DNA of 64,000 nt from Candidatus Poribacteria bacterium. Its GTDB lineage: Bacteria > Poribacteria > WGA-4E > WGA-3G. Both the position numbers and the translations under genes were made by a program. The stretch's first letter is position 1, and every line of letters starts with the position of its first letter. The stretch is from contig OZ242029.1 in NCBI GenBank assembly GCA_965205015.1, positions 1,984,001-2,048,000 of the forward strand, in the 5' to 3' direction. This document shows positions 5,225-43,319 of the stretch, in pieces. The notes under the pieces are model-generated. The model was not told where the DNA came from and made no database searches. It saw only the letters and a list, made by a program, of their open reading frames with translations.

Positions 5225-6835
5225 ATGTTCGATGGGTACTCCCCAAACCAATTCGGGCCCGGACGCTCGGCAGTCATCTGCCAACATGGAGCGGTTGCGA
5301 CGAGTCAGCCGCTTGCGGCACAGGGCGGGTTGCAGATTCTACGTGAAGGTGGAAACGCCGTTGATGCGGCGGTCGCAACGGCTGCAATACTGAACGTTGT
5401 TGAGCCAATGTCAACCGGCATCGGGGGCGATGCCTTTATGCTCGTTTATCAACCCAAAGAGGGTGTAATCCGCGGCTTAAATGCCAGTGGTAGAGCACCT
5501 TACGCTGCAGAGCCAGAATTCTTTACCAAGCAGGGGTTGATGCGTATTCCCTCTTTTGGGAGTATGTATCCCGTCACCGTCCCTGGGACAATTGACGGAT
5601 GGGCAACACTCCTCGACGAGTGCGGAACAATGTCGCTATCAGAGGTCCTTCAGCCTGCTATTGATTACGCCGAAAAAGGATTTCCTGTCAGCCCACAAAT
5701 TAGTCTCGCATGGCAAGAAAGCGCGCCGATGTTGGCGGAGCACCCCGACACAGCACGGACATACCTCAAGAACGGGAAGGCCCCGGCACCTGGGGAAATC
5801 TTTTTTCAACCGAATCTGGCACGGACGTTTCGGTTGATCGCAGAAGGCGAACGCGATGCCTTCTATCAAGGGGAAATTGCTGACAAAATCGTGAAATTCT
5901 CCGATGAAAACGGAGGCTTGTTTACGCAACGCGATTTTGCTGAACACACGTCGGAGTGGGTAGAACCGATTTCTGCCAATTATCGAGGCTACGATGTTTA
6001 TGAGATACCCCCAAATGGACAGGGGATCGCCGCTCTTCTTGCACTTAACATCGTTGAAGGATTTGAATTCGGAACGATGGGGCATAACAGTCCTGAACAT
6101 CTACACCATGCAATTGAGGCAATGAAATTAGGATTCTCGGATCTCTACGAATACGTAACGGATCCGACGTTTGTGGAGGTGCCAGTAGATGGGCTGCTTT
6201 CCAAAGATTATACAGAAAACCAGCGAGCGCGCATCTCATCGGAACGGGCAAACGATCAGCCGAATCCTGGTGTTCCTACAATGGGAAGTGACACGGTGTA
6301 CCTCTGTGCGGTTGACAGCGAGCGAAATGTCGTCTCCTTTATCAACAGTCTCTTCGCTGGTTTCGGTTCAGGCTTGGTGGCTGGCGATACGGGGATTATG
6401 TTACAAAATCGGGGTGCGGGGTTCTCGCTGAATCCCGACCATGCGAATTGTATTGCACCTCATAAGCGGACACTGCATACCATAATCCCTGGCATGATTG
6501 CACAAAACGGAGTGCCTTTAGTCACCTTCGGGGTCATGGGTGGACAGATGCAAGCCCAAGGACATTTACAATTTGTATGCAACCTCGTCGATTTCAATAT
6601 GGACGTGCAAAACGCATTAGACGCGCCTCGGTTTCGAGTGATGGATGACTCGCGGATTATGTTAGAGACGGGCATTCCAATGAACGCACAAGCCGCATTG
6701 GCACAAAAAGGACATCATATCATACCGGGGCACACTTTTTTTGGGGGTGGACAAGCAATTTTCATCGATCCAGCCTTTAACACGCTGGTCGCAGGTTCAG
6801 ATCCAAGACGGGATGGATGTGCAGTCGGCTATTGA
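5225..6835 (+). CDS. ggt: Gamma-glutamyltransferase (no signal peptide)
   Basis: GGNAVDAAVA, VVEPMSTGIGGD, nucleophile DTVY, GVMGGQMQAQG, SDPRRDG. Confidence 0.93.
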   Translation: MFDGYSPNQFGPGRSAVICQHGAVATSQPLAAQGGLQILREGGNAVDAAVATAAILNVVEPMSTGIGGDAFMLVYQPKEGVIRGLNASGRAPYAAEPEFFTKQGLMRIPSFGSMYPVTVPGTIDGWATLLDECGTMSLSEVLQPAIDYAEKGFPVSPQISLAWQESAPMLAEHPDTARTYLKNGKAPAPGEIFFQPNLARTFRLIAEGERDAFYQGEIADKIVKFSDENGGLFTQRDFAEHTSEWVEPISANYRGYDVYEIPPNGQGIAALLALNIVEGFEFGTMGHNSPEHLHHAIEAMKLGFSDLYEYVTDPTFVEVPVDGLLSKDYTENQRARISSERANDQPNPGVPTMGSDTVYLCAVDSERNVVSFINSLFAGFGSGLVAGDTGIMLQNRGAGFSLNPDHANCIAPHKRTLHTIIPGMIAQNGVPLVTFGVMGGQMQAQGHLQFVCNLVDFNMDVQNALDAPRFRVMDDSRIMLETGIPMNAQAALAQKGHHIIPGHTFFGGGQAIFIDPAFNTLVAGSDPRRDGCAVGY

Positions 6836-6852
6836 GACAGCAGGTAATTTTT

Positions 6853-6881
6853 TTGACTTTTGGCTTAGATTAGGGTATAAT
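6853..6881 (+). promoter_or_regulatory. Near-consensus sigma70 promoter about 370 nt upstream of gltB
   Basis: TTGACT-17 bp-TATAAT. Confidence 0.75.
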
Positions 6882-6889
6882 ATTAAAAC

Positions 6890-7107
6890 AAACAGACGGT
6901 TTCGGCTCAAACATTGAGGACCGAACCGAAGCATGTAAACCCGCCAAGCCGGTCGCAAATCACCGTTGATGCGATCGCGGATCGCTGTTGATTCCGAGGG
7001 GTCTCTTGCCTTGGAGCGCGCTATCTCTGGTAGGATATGAGTAGCCAGCGTCCGACTTAAGCCGTACAAAACATCCTATCCAGCCTGGAAAACGAAATCT
7101 GTTTTCT
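6890..7107 (+). ncRNA. Candidate structured leader RNA or sRNA, family not recognised
   Basis: Several consecutive hairpins directly after a strong promoter; no credible ORF. Confidence 0.35.
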
Positions 7108-27825: not shown

Positions 27826-29064
27826 CTATGGCTCCATGAGAACGCCCATAAACAATACCGTCTTTGTCTGATTATCACGAATGGCAAAGAAGAAGGGGCG
27901 GTCTACAATAAACATAGGGGGAGCACTCTCTATCTTTACCTCAACCTTAGTTGCAGCGGTGGCTTCAGTGCCTTCTTCGTTGACTTCTACGACGGCTTTC
28001 TGGAGGACTTCGCCGATATACAAATTGCCATCTAATATCTCTAAGGGTGCCATCCGTCCGAAATCCGCTCTACTCGGACTGAACGCGACCTCCATGCCGA
28101 GTGCCTTCAGCGGATCGTTCAGCCGCTTTTCGTATTCCAACTTGAATTTAGGGAGAGCCAGGTACACCTCTTCTTGATAAAATTCCGATATCCACTGTTC
28201 CCAACGCTCAGCGTTCAAGTGCGCTAAAAAGGCATCCAGATCGGATTCGCGACTTGGGAGGAAGATATACATACTCGTCCGTCCACTCCCGTAAGGGAGA
28301 CTCAACGCTTGAAAATTCGCGTCATAATTTGCGTAATACGGGTAGTCCCCTGTCCTGGACATCATCGGGGTTCGCTTTTCGGCACCGGTTGCGAGATGGA
28401 AGGTGCCATCGCGGGTCTCCGACGGGTCAAATTTTGTTTGCCACGTTCCTTTGAAGTAGATGGCGTTAATCAGGAACAACACTGTGTCTGCGTCAATTAC
28501 ATCCGGAACGATTTTCTTAAGCTTGCCACGAGTCTGGGTATCTACCCACTGATTGATTGTTTTTGAGGCACTCGGATCGCTAAAATCCAAGGTCGAAATC
28601 TCTGCGCCGAAAAATTCCGTGTTACGCTGTAGGAAATCCTGCTTGAAGGGGACATCTTGACGCGCCCACAGTGAGTTTGCAATTGTGAGTGTCACTTTCG
28701 GATCTGATGTCAAAAGGGTTTGATGCAATCCTGCATAACCGGCGTTGATAGATTCGGAATTTAATCCTTGTAGCTGCAACATGTCAGTCATCGCCTGTTC
28801 GGTTTCCCCAGCTGCGCCGTTCAGCGTCATTGCCAAGGCAACAGAAATACTGAAAGGTGAGATAAAAATATTCTTATTTTGCTCAGTCTTACGAATTTCA
28901 TCGAACAGATTAAAACTAAATCTGGTATTCGCCGAGACGACCCGCTCATCAACGGTGTCAGGTTCAACTGTGTCTGAACGAAACTCATCACATCCAGCGA
29001 ATAATGGTAAAACCAAGAAGCAGCATCCAAGAAAAGTTTTTGTGATTGTCTGTTTTTTATTCAT
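27826..29064 (-). CDS. Serpin, lipoprotein
   Basis: FAGC lipobox, NIFISPFS, NAIYFKGTW, hinge EEGTEATAAT, DRPFFFAI. Confidence 0.95.
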   Translation of the reverse strand: MNKKQTITKTFLGCCFLVLPLFAGCDEFRSDTVEPDTVDERVVSANTRFSFNLFDEIRKTEQNKNIFISPFSISVALAMTLNGAAGETEQAMTDMLQLQGLNSESINAGYAGLHQTLLTSDPKVTLTIANSLWARQDVPFKQDFLQRNTEFFGAEISTLDFSDPSASKTINQWVDTQTRGKLKKIVPDVIDADTVLFLINAIYFKGTWQTKFDPSETRDGTFHLATGAEKRTPMMSRTGDYPYYANYDANFQALSLPYGSGRTSMYIFLPSRESDLDAFLAHLNAERWEQWISEFYQEEVYLALPKFKLEYEKRLNDPLKALGMEVAFSPSRADFGRMAPLEILDGNLYIGEVLQKAVVEVNEEGTEATAATKVEVKIESAPPMFIVDRPFFFAIRDNQTKTVLFMGVLMEP

Positions 29065-29065
29065 T

Positions 29066-30025
29066 TTAGTAGAGGTGTGCGACATAACTGCCATAACCGT
29101 TGTAAATCACCGTTGGGTGTCTCTCATTTGTCCCAATCATCCGTTCCCTGGCTTGCGACCAGCGTGGATGTGGCACGTTAGGGTTGACGTTTGCCTCAAA
29201 ACCATATTCCCTCGGCGCGAGCGTATTCCAAAACGTCCGCGGCTTCTGATCGGTCAACTCAATACTCACAATGGATTTGATACTTTTAAATCCATATTTC
29301 CAAGGCACGATCAGCCGGATAGGTGCCCCGTGCTGCGGGGGCAAGATATGCCCATAGATGCCGACAGTGAGGAGGGTCAAGTCGTTCATTGCCTCAGCGA
29401 GCGTTAACCCTTCAAAGTAGGGCCACGGCATACGGAGATCGTTTTGTTCGGGTGCCATATCGGCATCCAAAAATGTGAGCATCCGAACGTATTTAGCTTC
29501 AGCCTTCGGTTGAACCTTTTCAAGCAACGCTTTCATCGGAAAGCCGATCCAAGGCACCACCATCGCCCACGCTTCAACGCACCGGAATCGGTAGATACGC
29601 TCTTCAAGCGGCATCTGCTTGATGAAATCGTCCACATCCAGTGTCATCGGTTTTTCGACTAATCCCGATATTTCGACTTCCCATGGACGCGTTCTGAATT
29701 TATCCACCTTTTTCCAAACAACATCTTTCCTGGTCGTAAATTCATAGTAATTGTTGTAAGTAGCGGCAATCACTTCATCAGTCATCTGTCTATTTACAGT
29801 AAAGTTTGCATTATTTTCAGCAGCGAGTTTTTGTGCACGGAAAGGCTCCAACTGCTTTTCAACCCCTTTATTCTGCGCGCACGCATTTGAACTTGAAAAG
29901 AGCAACGTCCCCGCGCCTGCTATCCCCAAATCTTTGATGAATTTTCGGCGATTGATATAATCTGACTCAGATGTTGCCTGATTTTCAGGGATTTCCCATC
30001 CCTTCGGAATTTTAATATACGCCAT
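29066..30025 (-). CDS. msrP: Protein-methionine-sulfoxide reductase catalytic subunit
   Basis: Tat RRKFIK, YNNYYEF, YRFRCVEAW, VPWKYGFKSIK, HPRWSQA. Confidence 0.95.
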   Translation of the reverse strand: MAYIKIPKGWEIPENQATSESDYINRRKFIKDLGIAGAGTLLFSSSNACAQNKGVEKQLEPFRAQKLAAENNANFTVNRQMTDEVIAATYNNYYEFTTRKDVVWKKVDKFRTRPWEVEISGLVEKPMTLDVDDFIKQMPLEERIYRFRCVEAWAMVVPWIGFPMKALLEKVQPKAEAKYVRMLTFLDADMAPEQNDLRMPWPYFEGLTLAEAMNDLTLLTVGIYGHILPPQHGAPIRLIVPWKYGFKSIKSIVSIELTDQKPRTFWNTLAPREYGFEANVNPNVPHPRWSQARERMIGTNERHPTVIYNGYGSYVAHLY

Positions 30026-30066
30026 GATATTTTCCTCCGTGTTTTGAGAGTCTGTTGCGAGTTTTT

Positions 30067-30774
30067 TCAAGATGGTGGATCTAAAAGTTCTGATCGGTTC
30101 ACAAGAAATTCAAAGCCGCACCGCTCAACTATCAATCTGACCGTTTTTGTAACCCATTCGTCAGCGTGTGGTGATACAATTACTTCGCTATTTTTACCCA
30201 TTAGCGTTTTAACGTTGATTTCAAGAGGTATGCCGAATTCATAAGGATCGTTATGTAGAAAGGGTTCAACACTAATGACCGCACGTACTTCGTGCTCATA
30301 CTCAAAAGGTGTTCTCTTATAGAAATAAGGGGAATACACCAAACTTACTATTGATGGATTTTCAGGCATCTCAATTTGATTGTGATTCTCAATGTACTCT
30401 ATTTGACCGATAAATACATCAGGTTCATCCGACAAACTATTTTTCAAATTCCCCATAGTTGTTTTGATTGCTATACCGCCATTGCGGAGGTGATATTTGT
30501 CCCACATCCCCATTGATTCCTCGTCCCCGTAATGCCAACAATTACACATAATGTAGGGCCGAAAACTGTTTGGATCAATACGGATGCCCGCGGATTCATA
30601 AAACACTATTATTGATTCCGGGATATAGCCTTCAAACTTGTCATCATACTCATCAGCTCTTGAAAAAAACAAAGATTCTGTTGCTAAAATATCGGTAAAC
30701 TTCTCAAAACTCATATATCGCCACAAAGTGGTGTCATCTTTAGGTTGTATGATGCCTTTCAGCTCTTTAGACAT
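30067..30774 (-). CDS. DUF2971-like hypothetical protein
   Basis: LWRYMSFEKF, CWH…ESMGMWDKY, KRTPFEYEHEVR. Confidence 0.65.
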   Translation of the reverse strand: MSKELKGIIQPKDDTTLWRYMSFEKFTDILATESLFFSRADEYDDKFEGYIPESIIVFYESAGIRIDPNSFRPYIMCNCWHYGDEESMGMWDKYHLRNGGIAIKTTMGNLKNSLSDEPDVFIGQIEYIENHNQIEMPENPSIVSLVYSPYFYKRTPFEYEHEVRAVISVEPFLHNDPYEFGIPLEINVKTLMGKNSEVIVSPHADEWVTKTVRLIVERCGFEFLVNRSELLDPPS

Positions 30775-31355: not shown

Positions 31356-31573
31356 GATGCCCTCCGTTTTCTTGAGAGTATCCTTGATATGCTGAAACAG
31401 GATGTTGATTCCTTTATTTTTCCGCAGCGCGTTCTCTCTTGTTTTTCTATATTCCCGTCGCCTCTATATAAAAGGATAACATGCACCGGAAAGAAAATCA
31501 ATTGAGAAAAAGGGAGAGGCTCTCCAAAGTATACGACTATGAGTCTGTCCAGTCTAAAATTCAGAGTATCCCC

Positions 31574-31642
31574 GTTTGTAGTAGGGCAATTCATTGCCCG
31601 TTCTTGACCCGCGAACGTGCGATAAATCGCACGACTACGAAC
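31574..31642. repeat. REP doublet (REPIN-like)
   Basis: GTTTGTAGTAGGGCAATTCATTGCCCGTTC…GAACGTGCGATAAATCGCACGACTACGAAC: two inverted GTAG-flanked palindromes. Confidence 0.7.
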
Positions 31643-31660
31643 TAATTTATCTACAATTAT

Positions 31661-31753
31661 CCGAGTTGCTACCTAATAGGTTTGAACGTTTAAACACAGA
31701 TTTTTCGAGGAAAGGTGCCTCTTTACACCTCGTAGCGGTGATATGTCTATAGA
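31661..31753 (+). repeat. Dispersed non-coding element, copy 1
   Basis: Begins CCGAGTTGCTACCTA, ends CACCTCGTAGCGGTGATATGTCTATAGA; both ends recur at 62203-62350. Confidence 0.55.
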
Positions 31754-31912
31754 AAATGCCGTATTTTCAAGGAATTGGTACTTCCGCTTTGAGAGTTGTT
31801 CTTCGCTGAGGTTATGTCGCCGACACAGTTCTGCTTGGGAACTTTCACCACGGAGTGCCTCAATGACAACTTCAGCTTTAAACTCGAGAATGAATCTTCT
31901 TCGTTTCGCCAT
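31754..31912 (-). mobile_element. IS3-family OrfA (HTH_Tnp_1) transposase remnant
   Basis: MAKRRRFILEFKAEVVIEALRGESSQAELCRRHNLS…; truncated, no integrase domain. Confidence 0.8.
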
Positions 31913-32016
31913 CAGAGACTCCTTTAGATAACTGTTACCTACCAAATGTTACACGGGTGTAACATTTTAACGGGATAATTTGCTAATATGTTATATTTAT
32001 TTCAACAAAACAATCT

Positions 32017-32381: not shown

Positions 32382-32822
32382 GTGTTACAAAAACATCGGT
32401 ACATTCTCATTCTACTCATGGGACTCTTGTACGTGTATTCGGTATGTCCGTTTCTATGTGCAACTTTAGATCAAAAGTCCTGCCACGACGCACCTCAAAG
32501 AATCCTGAGTGGGGATACCGATCCCCAATCAACCTGCTGCCAAAGCACCAAACCAAGCACAGCGGGTGAAGCCGAAACTCCATCAGGGAGTGATAATTCG
32601 TGCTGCTCAAAAGGTTTAGAACTTGTTCTTCCAGACGATAGATACAACACGCACGAATCCCGTGAATCGATTGAACAGTCTCTCGTCTCAATCCTCCCAA
32701 TCTCAGCAACTTTACCTGTTACACCTTGGGAATCCCTCAAGAATTCCCCCGCACCGCTAACCTCCACATTTTTCCCCGACCACGCTCTATCCCATAGAGG
32801 TCCTCCGTTTATCCAGTGCTAA
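32382..32822 (+). CDS. Cys-rich exported leader protein with C-terminal RGPP motif (DUF2946/CruR-like)
   Basis: Hydrophobic N-terminus; CPFLC, SCH, TCC, SCC; ends HRGPPFIQC. Confidence 0.7.
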   Translation: MLQKHRYILILLMGLLYVYSVCPFLCATLDQKSCHDAPQRILSGDTDPQSTCCQSTKPSTAGEAETPSGSDNSCCSKGLELVLPDDRYNTHESRESIEQSLVSILPISATLPVTPWESLKNSPAPLTSTFFPDHALSHRGPPFIQC

Positions 32823-32940
32823 GTGAGTTCCACAAGATATCTTAAGCACTATCGTATTCCTTGATCCCATTACTTTTTTCAGAGTGTTTTCCCGAGCCTT
32901 CTTTTTATGAAGGTTGGCAAGGAGAATTCTTAATAAACCT

Positions 32941-32976
32941 GTCGCGCGGGGTTTCGTGTCTCGCCGCGCGACTTTC
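32941..32976 (+). terminator. GC-rich hairpin just upstream of the barrel gene, possible attenuator
   Basis: GTCGCGCGG…CCGCGCGAC followed by TTTC (short U tract). Confidence 0.45.
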
Positions 32977-32996
32977 AAATAAGAGAAATTAAAATT

Positions 32997-34046
32997 ATGA
33001 AAATCCGTCTGTTTTTATGCACACTGTTGTTCACTTCGGTATTTATCTCTTTCGGGTTCGCACAAGAAAGTTGTCCCGCTTGAAGTAACCCCGTCTTACC
33101 GCCCAGCGGTCTGATGAATGAAGTCAGTTTGGCTTCACAAGAGATAGATCAGTTTCGAGTGAATATCAATATGTTAGTGTCCCCCGACGCACAAGGTGGA
33201 CATCTTGAATCAAGGGGACTTTCACCAACAGGAAAAGTTATCGACACTCCTTTACATAGACACCGTGTAGGGTTGAGCACTTACCGGATTGATGTTGGGG
33301 TCCAATACTTGCTGAGCGATCGGTGGACGTTGCGAGCAAACATTCCGTATGCCGTCAAAGACCAGGACGCAAGTATTGAGTGGATTGATTCAGTAACTCC
33401 TGAAGATAGGCAAGCGATCTTGCGGAGTCGGGATATCCATCATCGAGATGAAACCTACGCCGGACTTACGGATTCAGATCTGTTTTTGGGTTATAAAATG
33501 CGTGGACTCTTTAAAACCGATGACCTACTGTTTGCGCGGTTGGGCACCACAATTCCGATTGGCAAAACCGAGGAAAATCCTTGGAAACTCGGAGATGCGG
33601 GCATTGAGCATCTCCATATCCAGTTCGGGACCGGCACCTTTAACCCAATTGCCAACTTGCAATACAGTTTACCGCTCTACCGAGGTCTGACGATTATGGC
33701 TTCTACACGTGGAACGTTTCCGTTCTATGAGAACAGCAAGACGTATCGAGGTTCAGTAGAGTTAACTTACACAGCTGGCTTTATGTATCGCCTTTCGGAT
33801 TGGTTTTCATTTAACGGGAACTATCTCGGATTTTATCAATCCCCTGCCGCTTGGGCTGGGGAGCGGGACATCAACACAGGGATGCGTTATAGCATGGCAG
33901 CACTCGGTATGTCCATAGTAACGCTAAACGACATTTCCGTGTCTGCCAATGTCATGTTTCCGCTGACGCAAGAAACCCTTTACGATGGCGGCGACGCAAT
34001 TGAATTTGGAACTTTGGTCTCTTTGGCAACAACCTATTCATTTTAA
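32997..34046 (+). CDS. Outer-membrane beta-barrel with N-terminal C-P-A-U motif; candidate selenoprotein (TGA at 33081-33083)
   Basis: ATG 32997 is in frame with the 33114 ORF: MKIRLFLCTLLFTSVFISFGFA-QESCPA*SNPVLPPSGLMNEV…; barrel features IPIGK, QFGTGT and terminal YSF. Confidence 0.75.
33092..33116 (+). promoter_or_regulatory. Candidate bacterial SECIS hairpin
   Basis: CGTC-tt-ACCGC-cca-GCGGT-ct-GATG starting 8 nt after the TGA; the apical loop lacks the usual G. Confidence 0.4.
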
Positions 34047-34058
34047 AAGGAGAAAAAA

Positions 34059-34688
34059 ATGAAAATGAAATTGACACGGCGAATCCTCGCCTCTTTCATA
34101 GCAATTACAACCGTGCTACTGTTCTCAATCCTTTCACTTAAGGCAGAGAACGCACACAAACACGATAAAACCCATCAGCACGGTGATCACGCAGCTGCTG
34201 GTGAAAAAGTGCGTTGCACATTTAGTGGCATGATGATGAAACCTTCAGCGATGGTCAAAGTCGAACAGGACGGAAAAGCCTACTATTTCTGCAACGACAT
34301 GCAGGCAGAGATGTTCAAGGCGAATCCTGATAAGTACCTCCAGACAATTTCAGTGGGAAATTTGACATTCGATCTCAACGTGCTAACGACAGATGCATAC
34401 AAGATGATGATGTCTCACATGGGAATGGGAGGCATGATAAAAACTGACGAGATTCAGGGAAAAACGCACTATTTCAGTGTGTACCCGACGCAAGATCATG
34501 GGGAGATTGCGTTAGGTGATGTTAAACTCGCCATTCAGGTTACCAATGCCGAAGGGGAAACGAGGATGGCATTACTCAAATATAGCAAAATGACGCGGAC
34601 CTATGAGGGGTTCATTGTTATACCAAAGGGTGAGAAACACGAGGTGCGCATTCGGGTAACCAGCCCAGCTGTCAAAATTTTGCTTTAA
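34059..34688 (+). CDS. Periplasmic His/Met-rich YHS-domain protein
   Basis: Signal peptide, HKHDKTHQHGDH, CTFSGM…DGKAYYFC…FKANPDKY, MMMSHMGMGGM. Confidence 0.8.
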   Translation: MKMKLTRRILASFIAITTVLLFSILSLKAENAHKHDKTHQHGDHAAAGEKVRCTFSGMMMKPSAMVKVEQDGKAYYFCNDMQAEMFKANPDKYLQTISVGNLTFDLNVLTTDAYKMMMSHMGMGGMIKTDEIQGKTHYFSVYPTQDHGEIALGDVKLAIQVTNAEGETRMALLKYSKMTRTYEGFIVIPKGEKHEVRIRVTSPAVKILL

Positions 34689-34690
34689 GG

Positions 34691-34830
34691 GTTGTCAATT
34701 GTCGGTTATCAGTTATCGGTCAAAGAGGGCTCTGATAGCAATCTTCCCCACCTTGGAATACGCCAGCGCGCGGTAAATTGTTACAGAGCAGCTTCTTAAC
34801 TGACGACTGACAACTGATAACTGACGACTA
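34691..34830. repeat. Element with inverted arrays of 7-bp repeats
   Basis: GTTGTCA-ATTGTCG-GTTATCA-GTTATCG…CTGACGA-CTGACAA-CTGATAA-CTGACGA. Confidence 0.75.
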
Positions 34831-34847
34831 TTAACAAGGAGACCATA

Positions 34848-36200
34848 ATGCGTACAGTCAGGCTACGCCATCAAGTGACGGCAATTGTTATCGGCAGCAT
34901 GCTGGTGTTGGGTGTTCTGATGCAAACGGAAGCACATGGAATCACTCAGACAACACCAACGCCAGAACAAACCGATACGACAACCCTATTTGCTGAAACC
35001 CTTGAACTGCCGAATCTAATTCAGGTCGCTGTCGATCGGAATCCTAAAGTTAAAGCCGCAAAGGCACGGTGGCAGGCGACGATTGAGCAGTACCCACAAG
35101 TGACAGCATTGCCCGATCCGATGTTCATGTATGGCTATTTCTTACGGAGCGTGGAGACGCGAGTGGGACCGCAACGGCATCGGGTTAGCTTTTCACAAGC
35201 GTTTCCATACCCGGGCACCCTTGATGCAGCCGGACAGGTCGTCAAAAAAGCGATCGAAATTGAACGCGTGAAGCACGAGCAGGTAATACGGAATCTCATT
35301 GTTGAACTGAAACTGAGTTACCACGAGTTAGCGTATCTCCAGCGGGCAGTCGAACTGACACGACAAAACCATCAACTGATAGCCTCTATTCTCGCGATTG
35401 CCACAACTCGTTATGCCGAAGGGGAAGCGATACTCAATGATGTATTGAAGGCACAAAGTCAACTCGCTCAGTTAGAATACGATCTCGTCCTGCTGGAGGA
35501 ATTGCAGCGCGTTGAACATGCGAACATCAATGGAATCCTGTCTGTTCCTTCAACAACGCCGCTTGGCGCAACGGCACCTGTTGCCTATGAACCGCTTGAT
35601 GTGACGTTAGCCGATATTGAAAAACAGGCACTATCAAAGCGACAGGAGTTGCGAATTGCAGCGCTAACCATCGAAAAAGCCACCAAAGGGATTGTCCTTG
35701 CTGAACTCCAAACGAAACCCATGCTTAAGTTTGACTTAATGACAGTCGAAACGGGTAAAGCCTTGATGTTCGACACACCCGGCAGTGGTAAAAACCCATT
35801 TAGCATCGGGTTTGGTGTGACAATTCCGTGGTCAAGTTTGAAGAACAGCAGCAAAGTTCGCGAGGCGCAGCAAAACCGTGAGACTGTCACAGCGAACAAG
35901 CGCGCCTTGGAGGACGAAACGAAGGTTACCCTCCAAAAGATTTATTTTCGCCTTGAAAACGCGCGGCGGCTGATCGATCTCTATGAGACGACACTCATTC
36001 CGCAGGCGGGTGCTGCTATTGAGGTGGCGGAGACATGGCATCAAGAGGGACCCAAAAGCATAGCCGGATTCCTTGAGACGCAGAGTGTTTGGTTGAATTT
36101 TAATCTTGCTCGCCTACGTGCGATGGCAGACTATCAACAGAATGTAGCTCGATTGGAACGTCTGGTTGGGGGAAGGATCGATGATTCACAGAACCCTTAA
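34848..36200 (+). CDS. TolC/CusC family outer-membrane efflux protein
   Basis: AVDRNPKV, LPDP, SQAFPYPG, LIPQA, ARLERLVG. Confidence 0.9.
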   Translation: MRTVRLRHQVTAIVIGSMLVLGVLMQTEAHGITQTTPTPEQTDTTTLFAETLELPNLIQVAVDRNPKVKAAKARWQATIEQYPQVTALPDPMFMYGYFLRSVETRVGPQRHRVSFSQAFPYPGTLDAAGQVVKKAIEIERVKHEQVIRNLIVELKLSYHELAYLQRAVELTRQNHQLIASILAIATTRYAEGEAILNDVLKAQSQLAQLEYDLVLLEELQRVEHANINGILSVPSTTPLGATAPVAYEPLDVTLADIEKQALSKRQELRIAALTIEKATKGIVLAELQTKPMLKFDLMTVETGKALMFDTPGSGKNPFSIGFGVTIPWSSLKNSSKVREAQQNRETVTANKRALEDETKVTLQKIYFRLENARRLIDLYETTLIPQAGAAIEVAETWHQEGPKSIAGFLETQSVWLNFNLARLRAMADYQQNVARLERLVGGRIDDSQNP

Positions 36201-37758
36201 AATCGGTCTCATAGTGCTCACTGTTTTGGTAGGCGGGTGTGCCAGTCAGCGACTGGAAACCTACCAAGAGTTACGTAGCACTGAGATACAACGACCGGCA
36301 TATTACTATACCGAAGTCGAAACAGAGGTTTCCGATACGGAAAGCGAATCGACCGTGGAAACAGACCCATTTCTCAGCGAGATTGAAGCGAAGGTGTTGA
36401 AATACCAGAAACAGTGGCAAGCGCAATTGGAGAGTGAAACACCAGTACCCAATCTGTTTTACGATTTTTCAACGGACACCATGAAGGCACATCGACGATT
36501 GGCAGCATCACCGGAAGCAGCGAGAACCCAGCTTGCCCAACCTATTGTGCTGGAACTCCTCATAGCACTTGGATATGAATGGAACCCAGGTTTGAAAGCT
36601 GCCCATGAAAAAATTCGAGCGGTGCTGGAGCAGTATCCGCAAGCTGTTTACTTAGAAAATGTGTTACGTCAGTATAACGCTTTCACAAAACAACTGGATA
36701 CAAAAGTGGGACCGTTGACCCATAAAGAGATGACGGCAATGAAATTTCCGTTTCCAGGGACCTTGGCGTTGAAAGGGCAAGTTATTACTGAAGATGTGCG
36801 AATCGCCAAAAAAGAGTTCGAGATCGCATTACGGGATTTGGTGACCGAGATTAAGCTAGCTTACTACGATTATCTTTTTCTTACTGAGACAACCCATATT
36901 AACGAAGAAAATCAGGAACTACTAAAGCAGATGATTGCTATTGCGCAGGCGAAGTTTCGTGTTGGACAGGGCAAATATTCAAACCTCATTATGGCGCAGG
37001 TGGAATTAGCGAAATTGGCAGATGCAATTATTACACTTGAACAACAACGAGAAACTGTTATGGCACGCATTAATACATTGTTAAATAGTGCTGTGGATTT
37101 GCCATTAGGGGACCCTATGCCCGTTGAAGAAGATCGCGTGACACCTACTTTAACTGAGTTGTATGCGTTAGCAATTAAGAATCGTCAGGAGATTCAAAAA
37201 CAGAAATTGGCAATCAGTAAGATGGCTTTGGTTGTGGAGATGGCAAAGCAAATGACATATCCTGACCCGACGCTCGGGGCAAGTTACTTTGAAAATCGGA
37301 GCATGCCTGACTTGAAACACACACAAAAAATGCCGAGCACTTTTATGGCGCAACGTACATTAAATGCAAAGAATACAGCAGGGTTCGGACACCGAAATTC
37401 GTATATCCATGAAATGGGTGTAAAGATTGAGGCGATGGAGCACCAAATTGAGAAACTCGAAAGCGATCTCCGCTTTGTTGTGAAAAAACATCATTTTGGA
37501 ATGGAGACAGCAAATCGGAGTATTCGCCTTTATCGTCAGACACTACTTCCGCAAGCACAGCAGGCGTTGAGTGCCGCGAATACAGCGTATCAAGCGGCGC
37601 AAATTGACTTTTTGAGTTTCCTGGATGCCCAACGCACTTTATTAAATTTGAGGATTGAAGAGCAGCGGGCGCTGCGTGATTACCGCCAACACCTTGCACA
37701 GTTAGAACAGGCAGTTGGTATGATATTGCCCAAACAACCATTGATCCGAGGTTTTTAA
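36181..37758 (+). CDS. Second TolC/CusC family protein, lipoprotein
   Basis: VGGC lipobox, KFPFPG, LLPQAQQAL…YQAAQIDFLSFLDAQ; overlaps the previous gene by 20 nt. Confidence 0.9.
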   Translation: MIHRTLKIGLIVLTVLVGGCASQRLETYQELRSTEIQRPAYYYTEVETEVSDTESESTVETDPFLSEIEAKVLKYQKQWQAQLESETPVPNLFYDFSTDTMKAHRRLAASPEAARTQLAQPIVLELLIALGYEWNPGLKAAHEKIRAVLEQYPQAVYLENVLRQYNAFTKQLDTKVGPLTHKEMTAMKFPFPGTLALKGQVITEDVRIAKKEFEIALRDLVTEIKLAYYDYLFLTETTHINEENQELLKQMIAIAQAKFRVGQGKYSNLIMAQVELAKLADAIITLEQQRETVMARINTLLNSAVDLPLGDPMPVEEDRVTPTLTELYALAIKNRQEIQKQKLAISKMALVVEMAKQMTYPDPTLGASYFENRSMPDLKHTQKMPSTFMAQRTLNAKNTAGFGHRNSYIHEMGVKIEAMEHQIEKLESDLRFVVKKHHFGMETANRSIRLYRQTLLPQAQQALSAANTAYQAAQIDFLSFLDAQRTLLNLRIEEQRALRDYRQHLAQLEQAVGMILPKQPLIRGF

Positions 37759-37781: not shown

Positions 37782-39578
37782 ATGCCTAAAAATTTCTGCT
37801 TTGCAACTGCACTCATAATGACTGTGCTTTTCGGATTCAGCTGTAATCAGCCAGAGAACACTAAAATGGAACATCATGTTAGTAGCAAACTTGAAACAGT
37901 ATCAGAGGATACTTCGAGCATAGATGAACACGCCAACCATACCGCAAGAGGGACATCCTCAGACGAAGCCAAAACGATCCGTTACTGGACATGTGTTATG
38001 CATCCGACGGTCAAAATGTCAGAACCTAACAATTGTCCAGTTTGTAAGATGGATCTGATTCCCATTTACGAAGGATCAGGACTGGAACTCACTGAGCAAC
38101 AAAAGGCGCTGATTCCAGTGCGTACTGAACCTGTTGCGTTCCGTGAGGTTTCCCGCGAAATTCGAACCGTCGGTGTTCTGGATTATAATGAGACCCGTAT
38201 GGCGTACGCTTCAACACGAATCTCCGGATGGATTGAGGACTTGCACATTGATTTCACAGGTATCAACGTGCGTGAAGGCGATGAGCTTTTATCTATCTAC
38301 AGCCCGGAATTGGTCACAGCGCAAGAAGAATACTTGACGGCACTTAAAAGCATTGAGGAACTGCAAAATACAGAATACGCTACACTTCGAAAATCAGTTG
38401 AACAGACCCTTACCGCTGCAAAATCCAAACTTGAATTATACGGATTGACCTTAGACCAGATTGAGGGGATACGCAACCGCGGAGAGGTCAGTACAACCTT
38501 ACCCCTGTTTGCACCGATAGCTGGTACTGTGGTTCACATGAACGTCACGGAAGGTCAACACGTGAACAAGGGGATGAATCTTTATCACATTGCCGACCTC
38601 AGTAGCTTATGGATTATGGCAGACGTTTACGAATATGAACTGCCTTGGATCTACATGGCGCAAGCGGTTGAAATTACGACGCAGTCGATGCCCGGACTAA
38701 CGTTTTCTGGTAAAGTCTCCTACATTTATCCATTCTTTGATGCCCAAACGCGGACCCAAAAAGTCCAGATAGAAGTCGCCAATCCCACTGGACGACTCCG
38801 CCCCGGGATGTATGTAACGCTTCAAATGAAGCCTACACTCGCAGAGATCTATACGCAAGGAGCTGTCTCGAATATTGCATCCGAGCCAATATCTGAAACA
38901 GAAGGGAAGTGGTCGTGTCCTATGCATCCAGAGGTGCAGTCTGATGAATTCGGAGAGTGTTCTATCTGTGGTATGGACCTCGTCGAAAAACAGGAGACCG
39001 AAACGGGAGGAAAATGGTCGTGTCCTATGCATCCAGAGGTGCAGTCTGACGAATTCGGAGAGTGTTCTATCTGTGGCATGGACCTCGTCGAAAAACAGTC
39101 AACTGATGCGCATTCTCACGGACATCAGTCTTTCACCTCGCCGACTGTTCCAGCAGATCAACCGCCACTAATTTTCAAATATGTGTGTCCTGATGATCCG
39201 GATGAATATGCGACCGTACCCGGCCTATGTCCACGGGACGGAAAACCCCTCCTTATGACAGGTGAAGTTTTAACTGTACCCAAAAGTGCAATCATTGACA
39301 CCGGTTTACGGAAGATTGTCTTTGTGGATCGGGGCGAATCAGGTTATGAACAAGTGGAAGTTGAAGTGGGTCCTGAGGCTTGGGGTACATCGAGCGGCTC
39401 AGAAACCAAACGCCGATACTATCCTATTGTGAGTGGGCTTACCCCTGGCGATATGGTTGTCACCCATGGCAACTTCCTGATAGATTCGCAGACGCAATTA
39501 ACAGGCTCCGCATCAGGGGCTTATGGCGGGGCACTCGGCGATGATGAATCAAAAGTATCGCCTGTCCATCAACATTAA
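37782..39578 (+). CDS. cusB: CusB-like RND periplasmic adaptor with multiple heavy-metal-binding domains
   Basis: WTCVMHP…CPVCKMDL, IYSPELVTAQEEY, LRPGMY, two WSCPMHP…CSICGMDL, GNFLIDS. Confidence 0.9.
   Translation: MPKNFCFATALIMTVLFGFSCNQPENTKMEHHVSSKLETVSEDTSSIDEHANHTARGTSSDEAKTIRYWTCVMHPTVKMSEPNNCPVCKMDLIPIYEGSGLELTEQQKALIPVRTEPVAFREVSREIRTVGVLDYNETRMAYASTRISGWIEDLHIDFTGINVREGDELLSIYSPELVTAQEEYLTALKSIEELQNTEYATLRKSVEQTLTAAKSKLELYGLTLDQIEGIRNRGEVSTTLPLFAPIAGTVVHMNVTEGQHVNKGMNLYHIADLSSLWIMADVYEYELPWIYMAQAVEITTQSMPGLTFSGKVSYIYPFFDAQTRTQKVQIEVANPTGRLRPGMYVTLQMKPTLAEIYTQGAVSNIASEPISETEGKWSCPMHPEVQSDEFGECSICGMDLVEKQETETGGKWSCPMHPEVQSDEFGECSICGMDLVEKQSTDAHSHGHQSFTSPTVPADQPPLIFKYVCPDDPDEYATVPGLCPRDGKPLLMTGEVLTVPKSAIIDTGLRKIVFVDRGESGYEQVEVEVGPEAWGTSSGSETKRRYYPIVSGLTPGDMVVTHGNFLIDSQTQLTGSASGAYGGALGDDESKVSPVHQH
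38910..39098 (+). repeat. Recent intragenic tandem duplication of a metal-binding domain, 105-bp period
   Basis: 84-bp units at 38910 and 39015 differ only by two synonymous changes. Confidence 0.9.
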
Positions 39579-39614
39579 GGCTCAGATAAGAGGCGTTGTT
39601 AAACGAAAATCTCT

Positions 39615-39647
39615 TAACCGATAACTGATAACCGACAACCGATAACC
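39615..39647. repeat. 7-bp repeat array, right arm of the 34691 element family
   Basis: TAACCGA-TAACTGA-TAACCGA-CAACCGA-TAACC. Confidence 0.7.
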
Positions 39648-39650
39648 ATT

Positions 39651-42600
39651 ATGATTAACCGAATTATCGAAATCTGCATGAAGAACCGCCTGTTGGTGTT
39701 AGTCATCTTTGTCTTTGTCACAATGACGGGTTGGTGGGCATTGAACCAGACCCCAATTGATGCTATGCCCGACATCGGTGAAAACCAGGTCATTGTCTTC
39801 GCCGATTGGCCCGGACGAAGTCCACGGGATATTGAAGATCAGGTTATCTATCCCTTGAGTATTACCCTGCTTGGAATCCCCGATGTCAAAGATGTTCGCT
39901 CGACTTCCATGTTTAGTTTTGGCTACATTAACATTATCTTTAAAGATGATGTTGATTTCTATTGGGCTCGTACACGGGTACTGGAGCGAATGAATCTGGC
40001 ACAAAGGGACATGCCGGACGGTGTTGTGCCGATCCTCGGTCCCGATGCAACGGGCGTTGGACAAGTGTTTTGGTACACCGTTGAGAACGGGTACTATTGT
40101 CCGAATCATCCGACGAGACGCTATGCGAAGCCTGGTAAATGCCCGGAAGATGGTGAAACGCTTATTGCCTCCAATCTGGAGCTTCATGAACTTCGGACAC
40201 TCCAAGACTGGACGGTTCGTTACTATCTCGCCTCTGCTGATGGCGTTTCCGAGGTCGCCTCGGTCGGTGGATACGTCAAACAGTATCAGATCGACATCGA
40301 TCCGAACACTTTATTGGCGTATGATGTGCCGTTATCAATGGTTTACAACGCCGTCCGAGGGAGCAACCTTGATGTTGGTGCCAAGGTTATTGAGGAAGGC
40401 GGAATGGAGTTCCTAATTCGCGGCTTAGGTTTCATCAAAAGCATCGCGGATATAGAAAACATCGTTGTCAAGGAGCATAACGGCGTACCCATCTACGTCA
40501 AAAACCTTGGAACAGTCAGCGAAGGTCCCGACTTTCGGCGTGGTGCTTTGGACAAGGCTGGAATCCCCGCAACCGGTGGGGTCGTTCTCATGCGCTACGG
40601 TGATAACCCACTGCGCGTCATTGAGAACGTCAAGGCGAAAATAGCGGAACTCACACCTGGACTTCCACCCGGCGTCCAAATTGTACCATTCTATGACAGG
40701 AGCCATCTCATTCACCGCGCAACGGACACGCTGAAAGAAACATTGACGGAGGAAATCATCGTCGCGGCGGTTGTTATCCTGCTTTTCTTAGGACAAGTTT
40801 CAAGTAGTCTCATAATAGCACTTGTCTTACCGATGGGAGTTCTCCTGTCGTTTGTAGGTATGCGGATTATCGGTTTACCTTCAAACATCATGTCAATGGG
40901 TGGCATCGCCATCGCAATTGGCGTTATGGTGGATGCAGGTATTGTAATGACAGAGAATATCGCGCGACATTTACGGGAACCCCATGCAGGCGAAAGCAAG
41001 CTGCAAGTTGCAACGCGTGCCGCTAAAGAGGTGGGTCCACCTATCTTCTTTGCAATGCTCATTGTTATTGTTGCATTCATACCTGTTTTTTCTCTTACCG
41101 GTCAAGCGGGTAAACTTTTCAAACCGCTTGCCTATACAAAAACGTTCGCTATGATTGGGGCAGCACTTTTGGCGATTAGCCTTGTGCCGGTTTTAGCCTC
41201 ATTTCTACTCACGGACCCAACCCGTACCCCGACGGGTATGATTTCCAAGTGGGTGGCACGGTTCTTTTCACTACTCAGCTGGCCCCTAAGAAAGTTAGCG
41301 GATGGGATTACATGGATACTCAGAACTCTCTATCGTCCGATTATTCGATTGGCTGTAAGAAATATTTGGACCAAACTCGCTGTTGTTGTTTTAGCGGGAT
41401 TGGCTTTTGTCGCAAGTATACCCTTGACGCCTTTCTATAAAAATATTGGACAAGAATTCATGCCGCCACTTAACGAAGGCGCATTGTTGTTTATGCCGGT
41501 GCTGCTCCCGGGTGCCTCGATTACGCAAGCGAAAGATGTAATGGCGAAACAGGACTTGATTATGAATCGATTCCCTGAGGTTTCACTTGTCGTTGGAAAG
41601 TTGGGGCGAGCGGCAACAGCAACCGACCCTGCCCCAATTGGCATGTTTGAAACCATTGTCAATATAGTTGACCCAGCAGAGTGGCCCCGACGGGCTATTA
41701 AACATAATTCGACAAGGGAACTCGTACACCACCTCGTCCAACGCTTAAAACGCCAGGAACTGATGAGTGAGGAGCATGTAAACCATATTAACACCGAGTT
41801 TCTGGATGACATTGTTAAAGCTGCCATAAAACGGTTTGATACCTTGGCGACGACATACCATAATTCTTATCTGTCAGTTGATGCGCGCGAGAAACTCTAT
41901 CGAATCTGGTTATTACGAATCCTTTTGGAGGAGCTCCTCTCCGAAGAGCGAACAGGCGCAATGGGATTGGAACAGGTCAGAATTGGAGAATCTGAGACAG
42001 AAACGAAACTTCATCGGATTGCCGAGGAAATTGAGCCGACCCTCAAGCATAAAACTTATTTTCGGACCAAAAACCGCAACGAACTTATCACCGAACTGAC
42101 GGAGGCGACCCGGATGCCGGGGGTTTCCCCTATTATGACGCAGCCCATACGCAATCGTGTTGATATGCTCGCGACAGGTATACAGACGCCAATTGGAATC
42201 AAAGTGTTTGGGAAAGACCTCGCCAAGATTGAAGAGATCGCAGTGCGGATTGAGCAGGAACTCCTTAAACTTCAGGGAGCACAAGGTCCCTATGCCGAGC
42301 GCATTGGGAATAAGCCGTACCTTGAATTTCACATCGATCGAGAGGAAGCCGCCCGCTACGGCATCCAAATCAAAACAGTTCAACAAATCATCATGACAGC
42401 GATCGGCGGCATGAATTTAACCCATACCGTTGAAGGGCGGGAGCGATTTCCAATTCGTATCCGGTACATGCGAGAATTACGGGATAATATTGAAGCACTC
42501 AAGCGTGTACTTGTGCCAACACCAAAAGGGCTACACATTCCACTTGAGCAACTCGTAAAAATCGAAAGACGACCGGGGCCCGCGAAGATCGCAAGCGAGA

Positions 42601-43319
42601 ATACGCTCCTCTTTTCCCGCGTTTTTTGTGATGTAGATGTTGACACGATTGGGCTGGTTGATTTTGTCACATTAGCCCAAAAAACACTTGATGAGAAAAT
42701 TAAGCCAACCTTGCCCCAAGGCTATTTCTACGCCTTTAGCGGACAGTATGAAGCGGAACTTGAAGCCCGCGATCGATTAACAATTGTTGTGCCGGTATGT
42801 ATTGCCGTCATCTTTATGTTGCTGTACCTCCAGTTCAAGTCACCGTCTGCGATGTTTTCAATCTTCCTTGCGATTCCCTTTGCATTCATCGGGGGTATGT
42901 GGATGCAGTGGTTGATGGCATACGTGCCAGAAGCACTCGGCGGCGGTTACGCTATTAAATACAGTACGGCAGTATGGGTCGGATATATAGCCTTGTTTGG
43001 CATAGCCGTCGAAGATGGAATCGTCTTAATTGAATATCTACTGCAGCGAGTCCGGAGTGGTGAACCTATTGATGAAGCGGTAATCAATGCCGGCTTATTG
43101 CGTGTCCGCCCTATCATCATGACCACAGCAACTACAGTCTTGGCGTTATTGCCGATCATGTTAGCAGAAATTAGCACGACTACCGGCGCAGAATTAATGA
43201 AGCCCATCGCGGTCCCTACCTTCGGTGGTATGGTCTCGGCGACGGTGGCTAACCTTATCTTGGCACCCGTGTTATTTTCTCTCTTCTATCCGATTGAGCA
43301 TTGGATTCGCCAACGGTAG
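39651..43319 (+). CDS. cusA: CusA-like heavy-metal (Cu/Ag-type) RND permease
   Basis: DFYWARTRVLE, NIMSMGGIAIAIGVMVD, EFMPPLNEG…FMP, DPAPIGMFET, RVRPIIMT. Confidence 0.93.
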   Translation: MINRIIEICMKNRLLVLVIFVFVTMTGWWALNQTPIDAMPDIGENQVIVFADWPGRSPRDIEDQVIYPLSITLLGIPDVKDVRSTSMFSFGYINIIFKDDVDFYWARTRVLERMNLAQRDMPDGVVPILGPDATGVGQVFWYTVENGYYCPNHPTRRYAKPGKCPEDGETLIASNLELHELRTLQDWTVRYYLASADGVSEVASVGGYVKQYQIDIDPNTLLAYDVPLSMVYNAVRGSNLDVGAKVIEEGGMEFLIRGLGFIKSIADIENIVVKEHNGVPIYVKNLGTVSEGPDFRRGALDKAGIPATGGVVLMRYGDNPLRVIENVKAKIAELTPGLPPGVQIVPFYDRSHLIHRATDTLKETLTEEIIVAAVVILLFLGQVSSSLIIALVLPMGVLLSFVGMRIIGLPSNIMSMGGIAIAIGVMVDAGIVMTENIARHLREPHAGESKLQVATRAAKEVGPPIFFAMLIVIVAFIPVFSLTGQAGKLFKPLAYTKTFAMIGAALLAISLVPVLASFLLTDPTRTPTGMISKWVARFFSLLSWPLRKLADGITWILRTLYRPIIRLAVRNIWTKLAVVVLAGLAFVASIPLTPFYKNIGQEFMPPLNEGALLFMPVLLPGASITQAKDVMAKQDLIMNRFPEVSLVVGKLGRAATATDPAPIGMFETIVNIVDPAEWPRRAIKHNSTRELVHHLVQRLKRQELMSEEHVNHINTEFLDDIVKAAIKRFDTLATTYHNSYLSVDAREKLYRIWLLRILLEELLSEERTGAMGLEQVRIGESETETKLHRIAEEIEPTLKHKTYFRTKNRNELITELTEATRMPGVSPIMTQPIRNRVDMLATGIQTPIGIKVFGKDLAKIEEIAVRIEQELLKLQGAQGPYAERIGNKPYLEFHIDREEAARYGIQIKTVQQIIMTAIGGMNLTHTVEGRERFPIRIRYMRELRDNIEALKRVLVPTPKGLHIPLEQLVKIERRPGPAKIASENTLLFSRVFCDVDVDTIGLVDFVTLAQKTLDEKIKPTLPQGYFYAFSGQYEAELEARDRLTIVVPVCIAVIFMLLYLQFKSPSAMFSIFLAIPFAFIGGMWMQWLMAYVPEALGGGYAIKYSTAVWVGYIALFGIAVEDGIVLIEYLLQRVRSGEPIDEAVINAGLLRVRPIIMTTATTVLALLPIMLAEISTTTGAELMKPIAVPTFGGMVSATVANLILAPVLFSLFYPIEHWIRQR

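Follow-up and report, generated by a model that had tools for sequence, protein, structure and literature searches.

A probable outer-membrane barrel selenoprotein at the head of a Cus-type efflux gene row in Poribacteria

The DNA analyzed was a stretch of 64,000 nucleotides from the forward strand of contig OZ242029.1 of a Candidatus Poribacteria bacterium (assembly GCA_965205015.1, contig positions 1,984,001 to 2,048,000). This whole stretch is called the window in the following, and all positions are those of the window. An annotated open reading frame (ORF) for an outer-membrane beta-barrel protein is located at positions 33114 to 34046, with 310 amino acid residues when translated with table 11 and the end ...TTYSF-TAA. 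An ATG at 32997 is in the same frame and starts the sequence MKIRLFLCTLLFTSVFISFGFA-QES-C-P-A-TGA(33081-33083)-SNPVLPPSGLM.... Read through the TGA, the plus strand from 32997 to 34046 is one gene of 349 codons, including one UGA proposed to specify selenocysteine (Sec), with a terminal TAA, and exceeds the annotated barrel ORF by 39 codons. This gene structure was derived from the sequence and from tblastn of relatives, in which most matches spanned query residues 1 to 349. The comparisons described below indicate that the UGA at 33081 to 33083 very probably encodes Sec.

Reading frame and conservation of the UGA codon

The upstream part of the frame supplies a signal peptide of 22 residues (MKIRLFLCTLLFTSVFISFGFA, 32997 to 33062, plus strand). 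A preliminary description of the locus had named this in-frame ATG and its signal peptide, and had characterized the product of the 33114 ORF as a barrel with a terminal Phe that lacks a signal peptide; the sequence agrees on both points, and no signal peptide is present in a protein starting at ATG 33114. According to the AxA rule, signal peptidase I should cut after G-F-A, and the mature protein would start with Q-E-S-C-P-A-U-S-N-P. Cys26 is encoded by TGT at 33072 to 33074 (plus strand), and the in-frame TGA at 33081 to 33083 stands for U29, the seventh residue of the predicted mature protein.

To follow this motif in relatives, DNA was fetched for 80 loci of species-representative genomes, whose titles name Candidatus Poribacteria, uncultured Poribacteria, or an uncultured bacterium. 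One of them (L044) had lost the motif at a contig end, and the other 79 loci and the window make up the 80 sequences compared. The second column of the motif was TGA in 80/80 and never TAA or TAG, and no close relative carried TGC or TGT instead. In the first column, three codons upstream of the TGA, TGT occurred 37 times, TGC 10 times, and TGA 33 times. The codons flanking the TGA varied synonymously; residue G20, for instance, was constant in all 80 sequences while four different codons were used for it, and F21, Q23, A28, S30, N31, P35, and G38 were equally conserved in 80/80. The constancy of the TGA amid this synonymous variation is far beyond a chance result. Met40, the annotated start, was found in just 35. 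The signal peptide was retained in these relatives as well as in the homologues with Cys forms of the motif.

The 33 loci with two TGA codons constitute a paralogue group (55 to 61% identity) with the motif QES-U-G-A-U-SNP, or “UxxU,” which the preliminary description had overlooked. This paralogue, with its two TGAs 9 nt apart, was present in every Poribacterial genome examined (L047 to L080, e.g., L053:3067-4077 and G001:C1 at about 5900 to 6900). In one UxxU locus, L076, a further in-frame stop takes the place of a conserved Trp (SFSMMR*FDAQGGH), and this locus may be a pseudogene or contain an error.

A homologue search with the read-through protein gave 611 proteins at an E value of ≤0.001, and the search of representatives gave 407 clusters at the same threshold. 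For the best 120 of the 611 homologues, coverage of the read-through protein did not exceed 89%; most of them had 310 residues and none was longer. These entries therefore are truncated gene calls with the same cut point. More distant homologues with an intact N terminus possess CPAC-SNP, CAAC-GNP, or CAGC-RNP, which places Cys into the column of the UGA. Two representatives, P0183 and P0181, show Trp at Sec columns; for P0183, near-identical loci have TGA in the DNA at the Trp position, and P0181 was read at the protein level.

A Cys-form alignment also served as the query for a scan of metagenomes. The pattern matched 385 times, 241 relatives were confirmed, and 80 of these were examined. 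The motif was visible in 74 of these 80 loci and was UxxU in 53, CxxC in 14, CxxU in 5, and xxxU in 2 of them. The second column was thus TGA in 60 and Cys in 14 loci, the latter being CPAC loci read in DNA. In the metagenomic part of the family, Sec often directly follows the predicted signal peptidase site (...ALA↓UPAUSNP). Since 53 of the 74 motifs were UxxU, the CxxU gene of the window is a single branch within a large family, most of which carries two Sec residues.

The TGA is not an assembly error because contigs of two sequence data sets do not differ from the window at this site. No variant was present at 33081 to 33083 in the contigs of X1, the probable source run, and a contig of X4, from an independent study, covers 33024 to 33160 with 0 differences and contains the TGA. 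Contigs from the RNA libraries X8 and X9, from a relative with about 95% identity, extend from 32986 to beyond 34100 and retain the TGA; they are no proof of transcription and were used only for this retention. A global reassignment of TGA is ruled out by the usage of stop codons. Among the 35 ORFs in the window with at least 250 residues, 25 ended with TAA, 6 with TAG, and 4 with TGA, and the 80 barrel genes ended with TAA in 44, TAG in 21, and TGA in 15 cases (L076 being counted at its premature stop). That other genes stop at TGA, as already mentioned in the preliminary description, thus holds for the window and for the barrel family.

Hairpins downstream of the UGA and the Sec decoding machinery

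Two RNA hairpins follow the UGA. Hairpin 1 at 33092 to 33116 (plus strand) starts 8 nt after the TGA, with the upper stem ACCGC/GCGGU, the loop CCA at 33103 to 33105, and a fold energy of −10.2 kcal/mol for the whole hairpin. It had been proposed earlier, with the caveat that its loop does not resemble the G-containing loop of a Sec insertion sequence (SECIS) element; it folds as described, and the loop indeed contains no G. The loop begins 19 nt after the UGA, and the annotated ATG 33114 is situated inside the 3′ arm. In 61 distinct Poribacterial sequences, the register of hairpin 1 is fixed, and its loop of 3 nt occupies +20 to +22 relative to the UGA. Its pairs covary, partly due to synonymous third positions: +12/+30 was CG in 24, GC in 18, AT in 9, and GT in 2 sequences, +15/+27 was AT in 22, TG in 22, and CG in 7, and +11/+31 was TA in 24, CG in 19, and TG in 7. 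These pairs were counted in the codon register instead of the MAFFT alignment. RNAalifold on the MAFFT alignment recovered the second hairpin, and hairpin 1 appeared only as 2-bp fragments because of the placement of gaps in this alignment. The first base of the hairpin 1 loop was G in 29 of 30 distinct UxxU sequences and C in 31 of 31 CxxU sequences. A metagenomic sister pair, L121 with UPAU and L122 with CPAU, has the same hairpins.

Hairpin 2, UGAAGUCA-GUU-UGGCUUCA, is located at 33119 to 33137 (plus strand), 43 nt after the UGA, and consists of an 8-bp stem and a G-U loop. It is better conserved than hairpin 1, and the preliminary description, correct about the latter, had missed it. The family form UGAAGUCA-GUU-UGRCUUCA hardly varies in either paralogue group. 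Synonymous pairwise diversity in the codons concerned, 42 to 47, was 0.014 compared to a gene median of 0.46, the lowest value of 344 codon windows. As judged by RNAalifold, the sole common change was G to A, which turns a U-G into a U-A pair. The distance of hairpin 2 to the UGA differed by −3, 0, or +6 nt between subgroups. Its 13-nt core was present in only 2 to 3 copies per genome, at members of the barrel family. Hairpin 2 as a general Poribacterial SECIS motif was rejected, since the core occurred only at these copies and the structure at the selD gene is different. Hairpin 2 would be the likelier SelB-binding element of the two and is the best candidate for it.

In other lineages, hairpins with stems of 6 to 9 bp and GGUC or GGUU loops are found either at +20, the position of hairpin 1, or between +34 and +46, where hairpin 2 is located in the window; an example at the spacing of the Escherichia coli fdhF element is AAUUCCCC-GGUC-GGGGAAUU in L158. 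GGUC is the loop of the fdhF SECIS. Hairpins of at least 5 bp with a G early in the loop were present in 48 of 50 distinct TGA-form sequences compared to 4 of 11 Cys forms, an xGGU loop in 25 of 50 versus 0 of 11, and the mean minimum free energy (MFE) was −23.1 kcal/mol in TGA forms versus −14.5 kcal/mol in Cys forms. The fdhF type of bacterial SECIS (bSECIS) shares with the window the hairpin inside the ORF behind the UGA and the position of the hairpin 1 loop at 19 nt, and with related lineages the stems of 6 to 8 bp and the GGUC loops. It differs from the window, in which the loop of hairpin 1 contains no G and the G-U loop belongs to a hairpin at 43 nt, and from the many family members with two successive hairpins. 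Unlike fdhF, most members of the barrel family require the decoding of two UGAs separated by 9 nt.

The machinery for Sec incorporation was searched in the genomes of five relatives, reached via L001, L003, L008, L040, and L049 (69 to 94% protein identity). SelA (511 to 525 bits), SelB (340 to 352 bits), and SelD (about 360 bits) were present in 5/5 genomes. The selB gene adjoined a tRNA-Sec (RF01852, 78 bits), and ARAGORN called tRNA-SeC(tca) in all five. The SelD sequence itself contains one in-frame TGA (VKCAG-U-ASKLAPGEL; L090 to L094 of G001 to G005). The structure 3′ of this TGA in the selD gene is weak, unlike the barrel hairpins.

Barrel fold, related proteins, and gene context

The beta-barrel domain comprises residues 48 to 349 (33138 to 34043, plus strand) and ends with the terminal Phe, as derived from AlphaFold2, Foldseek, and conserved columns. 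AlphaFold2 modeled the barrel with a predicted local distance difference test (pLDDT) of 87.2 and 88.2 and a predicted template modeling (TM) score of 0.84, and about 12 strands were counted from the DSSP lists. In an alignment of 64 sequences, H89, H148, H149, H205, D159, P117, P187, G211, G213, and W286 were invariant, and H69 and H207 were conserved in at least 90%. An alignment of 63 sequences with N termini had all six His residues, the residue of the Sec column, A28, N31, P32, and the HxHxQFGxGT block invariant; this block, HxHIQFGTGT, is part of the barrel domain. One homologue carries a C-terminal tail that resembles a heavy-metal-associated (HMA) domain. The pLDDT of the N-terminal tail rose from 30 to 40 to 56 to 66 once real N termini had joined the alignment, which hints at a preferred position of the tail in the model. 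The termini of such barrels generally point into the periplasm, and the tail should accordingly be periplasmic.

No Pfam family matched the barrel protein of the window above the cutoff (Toluene_X with 16.6 versus 29.7 bits, OMP_b-brl with 17.8 versus 28.7 bits), 0 NCBIfam families matched the barrel proteins P0001, P0126, and P0208 or the YHS protein encoded downstream in the window, and the family profile yielded from the PDB sequences only a beta-spectrin at E = 0.08, a chance match. The best structural match was FapF from Pseudomonas (PDB 5O65, 5O67; Foldseek E = 1.5e-12, TM score 0.67 to 0.70 on target length), a barrel with a pore controlled by an N-terminal segment. With 12 to 14% identity, this similarity concerns the fold only; FapF contains no Sec, and the window has no fap operon but metal-related genes instead. 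The channels of COG4313/PF13557 (Phenol_MetA_deg), described for hydrophobic substrates, are small barrels with about 12 strands as well, and the P. putida F1 channel (PDB 4RL8) was found with E = 9.5e-12 and TM scores of 0.54 (query) and 0.69 (target). Identity to 4RL8 is 11%, however, the window protein has no PF13557 match at E ≤ 0.01, and these channels do not possess the N-terminal C/U-x-x-C/U-[STA]NP motif, the six-His signature, or Sec. A precomputed PF13557 match existed for 5 of the best 120 listed homologues. The domain of CusC/TolC outer-membrane factors, OEP (PF02321), is absent from the barrel and present in separate genes at 34848 to 37758.

Selenoproteins with related features are the UxxU HMA-like “putative mercuric reductase” of NF041115, for which UxxU with two Sec residues is listed in excerpts of PMC13188914, and the barrel protein GSU2204 of the MtrB/PioB type (NF041027). 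The former shares with the window protein, as do MerP and CopZ, a Cys/Sec pair with an x-x spacing and contexts of soft metals. NF041115 is a small soluble HMA domain, though; the window barrel has no match to it, and only the HMA domain of a neighboring partner protein touches this family, with 29.5 to 37.7 bits compared to a cutoff of 95. GSU2204 is larger, contains CXXCH but not UxxU, and has a context of extracellular electron transfer; the window barrel does not match NF041027. In excerpts of two selenoproteome reviews from 2026 and 2022 (PMC13188914, PMC9312934), the GOS survey (PMC2398784), and a 2022 preprint (10.1101/2022.07.06.499078), the GSU2204 family is the only outer-membrane barrel among the selenoproteins. 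A full-text literature search did not find a description of the barrel family, which the supplementary tables of surveys might nevertheless list. The data point to a real but misannotated selenoprotein gene with a noncanonical SECIS arrangement from a broad, uncatalogued outer-membrane family, whose function is probably the handling of soft metals.

Downstream of the barrel gene and on the same strand follow the genes of a Cus-type efflux system, in agreement with the earlier statement that the barrel gene heads such a row. Starting 12 nt downstream, 34059 to 34688 encodes a protein of 209 residues with a His-rich N-terminal region and a YHS domain (PF04945, 27.7 bits at a cutoff of 30.3). Next are two TolC-like OEP genes at 34848 to 36200 and 36166 to 37758 (PF02321, E = 2.9e-37 and 5.6e-31), the gene for a CusB/HlyD-type membrane fusion protein at 37782 to 39578 (PF16576, E = 2.5e-73) with three stretches of a heavy-metal-binding domain (HMBD; PF19335, E = 1.9e-35), and at 39651 to 43319 the gene for an efflux pump of the resistance-nodulation-division (RND) type from the AcrB/CusA superfamily (PF00873, E = 1.6e-209), which has an HMBD-like match (PF19335, 22.5 bits at a cutoff of 23.6). 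No thioredoxin gene adjoins the barrel gene in the window, and the ORF upstream, 32382 to 32822, has no Pfam match. A G+C-rich inverted repeat, GTCGCGCGG...CCGCGCGAC, is located at 32938 to 32971, about 30 nt 5′ of the start codon. It was partly detected as a weak terminator-like site and could end an upstream transcript or be an operator; the sequence from this repeat to ATG 32997 did not yield a sigma-70-like promoter.

At the Poribacterial CxxU loci, a relative of the YHS gene was located downstream in 30 of 46 cases and an OEP gene in 28 of 46. The UxxU paralogue has instead a gene for a family-5 solute-binding protein downstream in 31 of 33 loci (728 residues, followed in L053 by the gene of a permease of the ATP-binding cassette [ABC] type) and an aldo-keto reductase gene upstream in 33 of 33. 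At 60 metagenomic loci, the upstream same-strand partner had a thioredoxin fold in 27/60, an HMA domain in 22/60, and AhpC-TSA-like matches in 12/60; the thioredoxin-fold partner carries a signal peptide as well as the motifs GMSCxxC and WCGPC. Among 99 further neighbor ORFs, out of 207 that were computed, HMA (3), CsoR-type repressors (3), ArsR-type regulators (3), P-type ATPase (2), multicopper oxidase (2), MerT (2), HMBD (2), and OEP (2) recurred. A CusA-family RND pump and a GlxA-like copper oxidase were neighbors as well. In L123 at about 5400 to 6001, the HMA-thioredoxin partner has in-frame TGAs in its HMA motif (GMT-u-PSG-u), so that the partner may be a selenoprotein in some lineages. 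The reading frame of a MerR-like regulator is further upstream in L123, without an NCBIfam match at 1e-5.

Decoding of the UGA and possible function of the barrel

The favored account is that of an exported outer-membrane barrel selenoprotein with a UGA decoded by SelB, and the probability of this account as a whole is high. SelB and Sec-tRNA(Sec) would decode the UGA at 33081 to 33083, aided by the downstream RNA structure. Hairpin 2 may be the SelB site, with the folded hairpin 1 shortening the path to it, or alternatively, hairpins 1 and 2 may cooperate. The preliminary description had proposed a selenoprotein with the TGA at the second Cys of a CxxC motif, and the conservation of the codon, the Cys homologues, the retained signal peptide, the Sec machinery of the relatives, and the TGA in independent contigs agree with it. 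None of the observations that it had named as refuting was made.

The gene callers read two genes at this site, and in this case, a leader or upstream ORF of 28 codons would end at TGA 33081 and the barrel would be translated separately from ATG 33114. This ATG exists, TGA is an ordinary stop elsewhere, and the best 120 homologues do not exceed 310 residues. Such an arrangement is nevertheless very improbable. A barrel starting at Met40, a residue of only 35/80 sequences, would lack a signal peptide, SNPxLPxxG between the TGA and Met40 is conserved in frame, the Cys-form homologues are continuous proteins that share this signal peptide and have CPAC-SNP, and the paralogue would have had to keep two stops 9 nt apart in 33 loci. 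The UGA may also be leaky or recoded by a near-cognate tRNA for Trp, Cys, or Arg, or may mostly terminate translation, so that selenium supply or a pause at the hairpin acts as a switch on the amount of barrel protein. The position of the window hairpins outside the consensus bSECIS model would fit this, but it is improbable because Cys, the typical counterpart of Sec, occurs at exactly both columns, which alternate between TGY and TGA only, because the full Sec machinery including a UGA-containing SelD gene is present in 5/5 relatives, and because GGUC-loop hairpins occur in TGA forms of the family and never in Cys forms. The chance that the locus is a pseudogene or contains a recent nonsense mutation or a sequencing or assembly error is negligible. 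The stop codon itself and the additional stop of L076 at a conserved Trp are compatible with such an event, but TGA is found in 80/80 sequences from separate assemblies and in 60 of 74 metagenomic second columns, residues before and after it are conserved, and contigs of two studies agree.

If the protein is exported as proposed, a flexible tail of about 25 residues with the Cys/Sec pair at its tip would be tethered to a channel of about 12 strands with six His residues. On the periplasmic side, the thiol/selenol pair may capture a thiophilic metal, with Cu(I) as the most likely ion and Ag(I) or Hg(II) as alternatives. The ion may then be passed to or from the His-lined barrel in cooperation with the adjacent YHS protein and the RND system of the Cus type. 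The exported HMA-thioredoxin partner of other lineages may deliver the metal, keep the pair reduced, or both. As judged from gene context and conserved residues, a handling of soft metals is slightly favored over a pure redox chemistry. The main functional rival is a genuine selenoprotein in which the C/U-x-x-U pair is a redox center cycled by the exported thioredoxin partner; a selenenylsulfide or diselenide would gate or plug the channel, or the pair would reduce a disulfide, a polysulfide, or an oxidized metal before passage. N-terminal segments occupy the barrel in the COG4313 and FapF folds, and the commonest neighbor is the thioredoxin-fold protein with WCGPC (27/60), with AhpC-TSA-like matches in 12/60. 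Most bacterial CxxU, UxxC, and UxxU selenoproteins catalogued in excerpts of PMC13188914 and PMC9312934 are thiol oxidoreductases. A redox center as the main role is still rather unlikely: the thioredoxin partner is fused to HMA in 22 loci, genes for copper and mercury dominate the neighborhoods, the six conserved His residues and the HMA-tailed homologue suit metal chemistry, and the barrel gene of the window has no adjoining thioredoxin gene. A redox role and a metal role are not mutually exclusive.

Evaluation of the favored account, in its decoding as well as its functional part, needs to consider several observations that weigh against it. The consensus bSECIS model, as given in excerpts of PMC13188914, demands a loop of 3 to 9 nt, a stem of 4 to 16 bp, a G in the first two loop positions, a spacing of 16 to 37 nt, and an MFE of ≤−7.5 kcal/mol, and the same excerpts state that a subset of real bSECIS elements falls outside the model. 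No hairpin of the window agrees with all four published structural criteria: hairpin 1 has no loop G, and hairpin 2 has a spacing of 43 nt and only −7.2 kcal/mol. In the strict version of the criteria used for scoring, with perfect stems, conforming hairpins were present in 9/43 CxxU, 32/78 UxxU, and 0/11 CxxC sequences compared to 1 to 5% of shuffles, which is a limited conformity. RNAalifold did not find two-sided compensations in hairpin 2, and Rfam at E values up to 10 gave no SECIS family for 32900 to 33300, only a chance match to CRISPR-DR33. The evidence for the Sec machinery is by proxy, coming from genomes of relatives with 84 to 92% DNA identity or less; the value for the nearest one refers to a syntenic region of 18 kb. 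The placement of the tail is of moderate confidence only, with a pLDDT of about 56 to 66. The functional part relies on neighborhood and conserved residues and is circumstantial, and because the Poribacterial loci all belong to a single phylum, their shared gene order does not count as independent evidence. Finally, the contexts conflict, with the UxxU paralogue next to an ABC importer and the CxxU copy next to an efflux pump.

A joint reading of all these data can be put forward tentatively. An ocean-wide family of channels may use a tail with Sec-x-x-Sec, here Cys-x-x-Sec, located directly behind the signal peptide cleavage site, to bind Cu(I) or Hg(II) with the affinity of a selenolate and hand the metal through a six-His barrel. 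An undescribed SECIS with two hairpins, a covarying spacer hairpin at an fdhF-like distance and a distal hairpin with a G-U or GGUC loop 34 to 46 nt from the UGA, may let SelB decode two UGAs at a distance of only 9 nt or keep a second SelB ready. Poribacteria may use the CxxU copy at the Cus system for efflux and the UxxU copy at the ABC importer for uptake. If the favored account is true, Sec biology would extend to outer-membrane channels with Sec at or near the mature N terminus, Sec would be a probable ligand of soft metals and not a cytoplasmic redox catalyst, and the selenium supply would be tied to copper or mercury homeostasis at the cell surface of sponge symbionts. Closely spaced UGAs with hairpins beyond the 16- to 37-nt rule provide a natural test of the constraints that SelB imposes on SECIS geometry. 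For annotation, gene callers lose the signal peptide and the most distinctive residues across a family as large as the 611 homologues, and reannotation with a model built for this family would correct hundreds of entries.

Other features of the window touch the barrel gene only by their location. Intergenic sequences at 31570 to 31930, 34685 to 34835, and 39582 to 39652 have dozens of copies with 72 to 100% identity across the genomes of two relatives. They resemble dispersed repeats of the miniature inverted-repeat transposable element or repetitive extragenic palindromic type, and two of them are intergenic within the efflux cluster. The minus strand upstream of the barrel gene encodes a bacterial serpin at 27826 to 29094 (PF00079, E = 3e-125) and, at 29066 to 30070, a molybdopterin-binding oxidoreductase, both of which are unrelated to the barrel gene.

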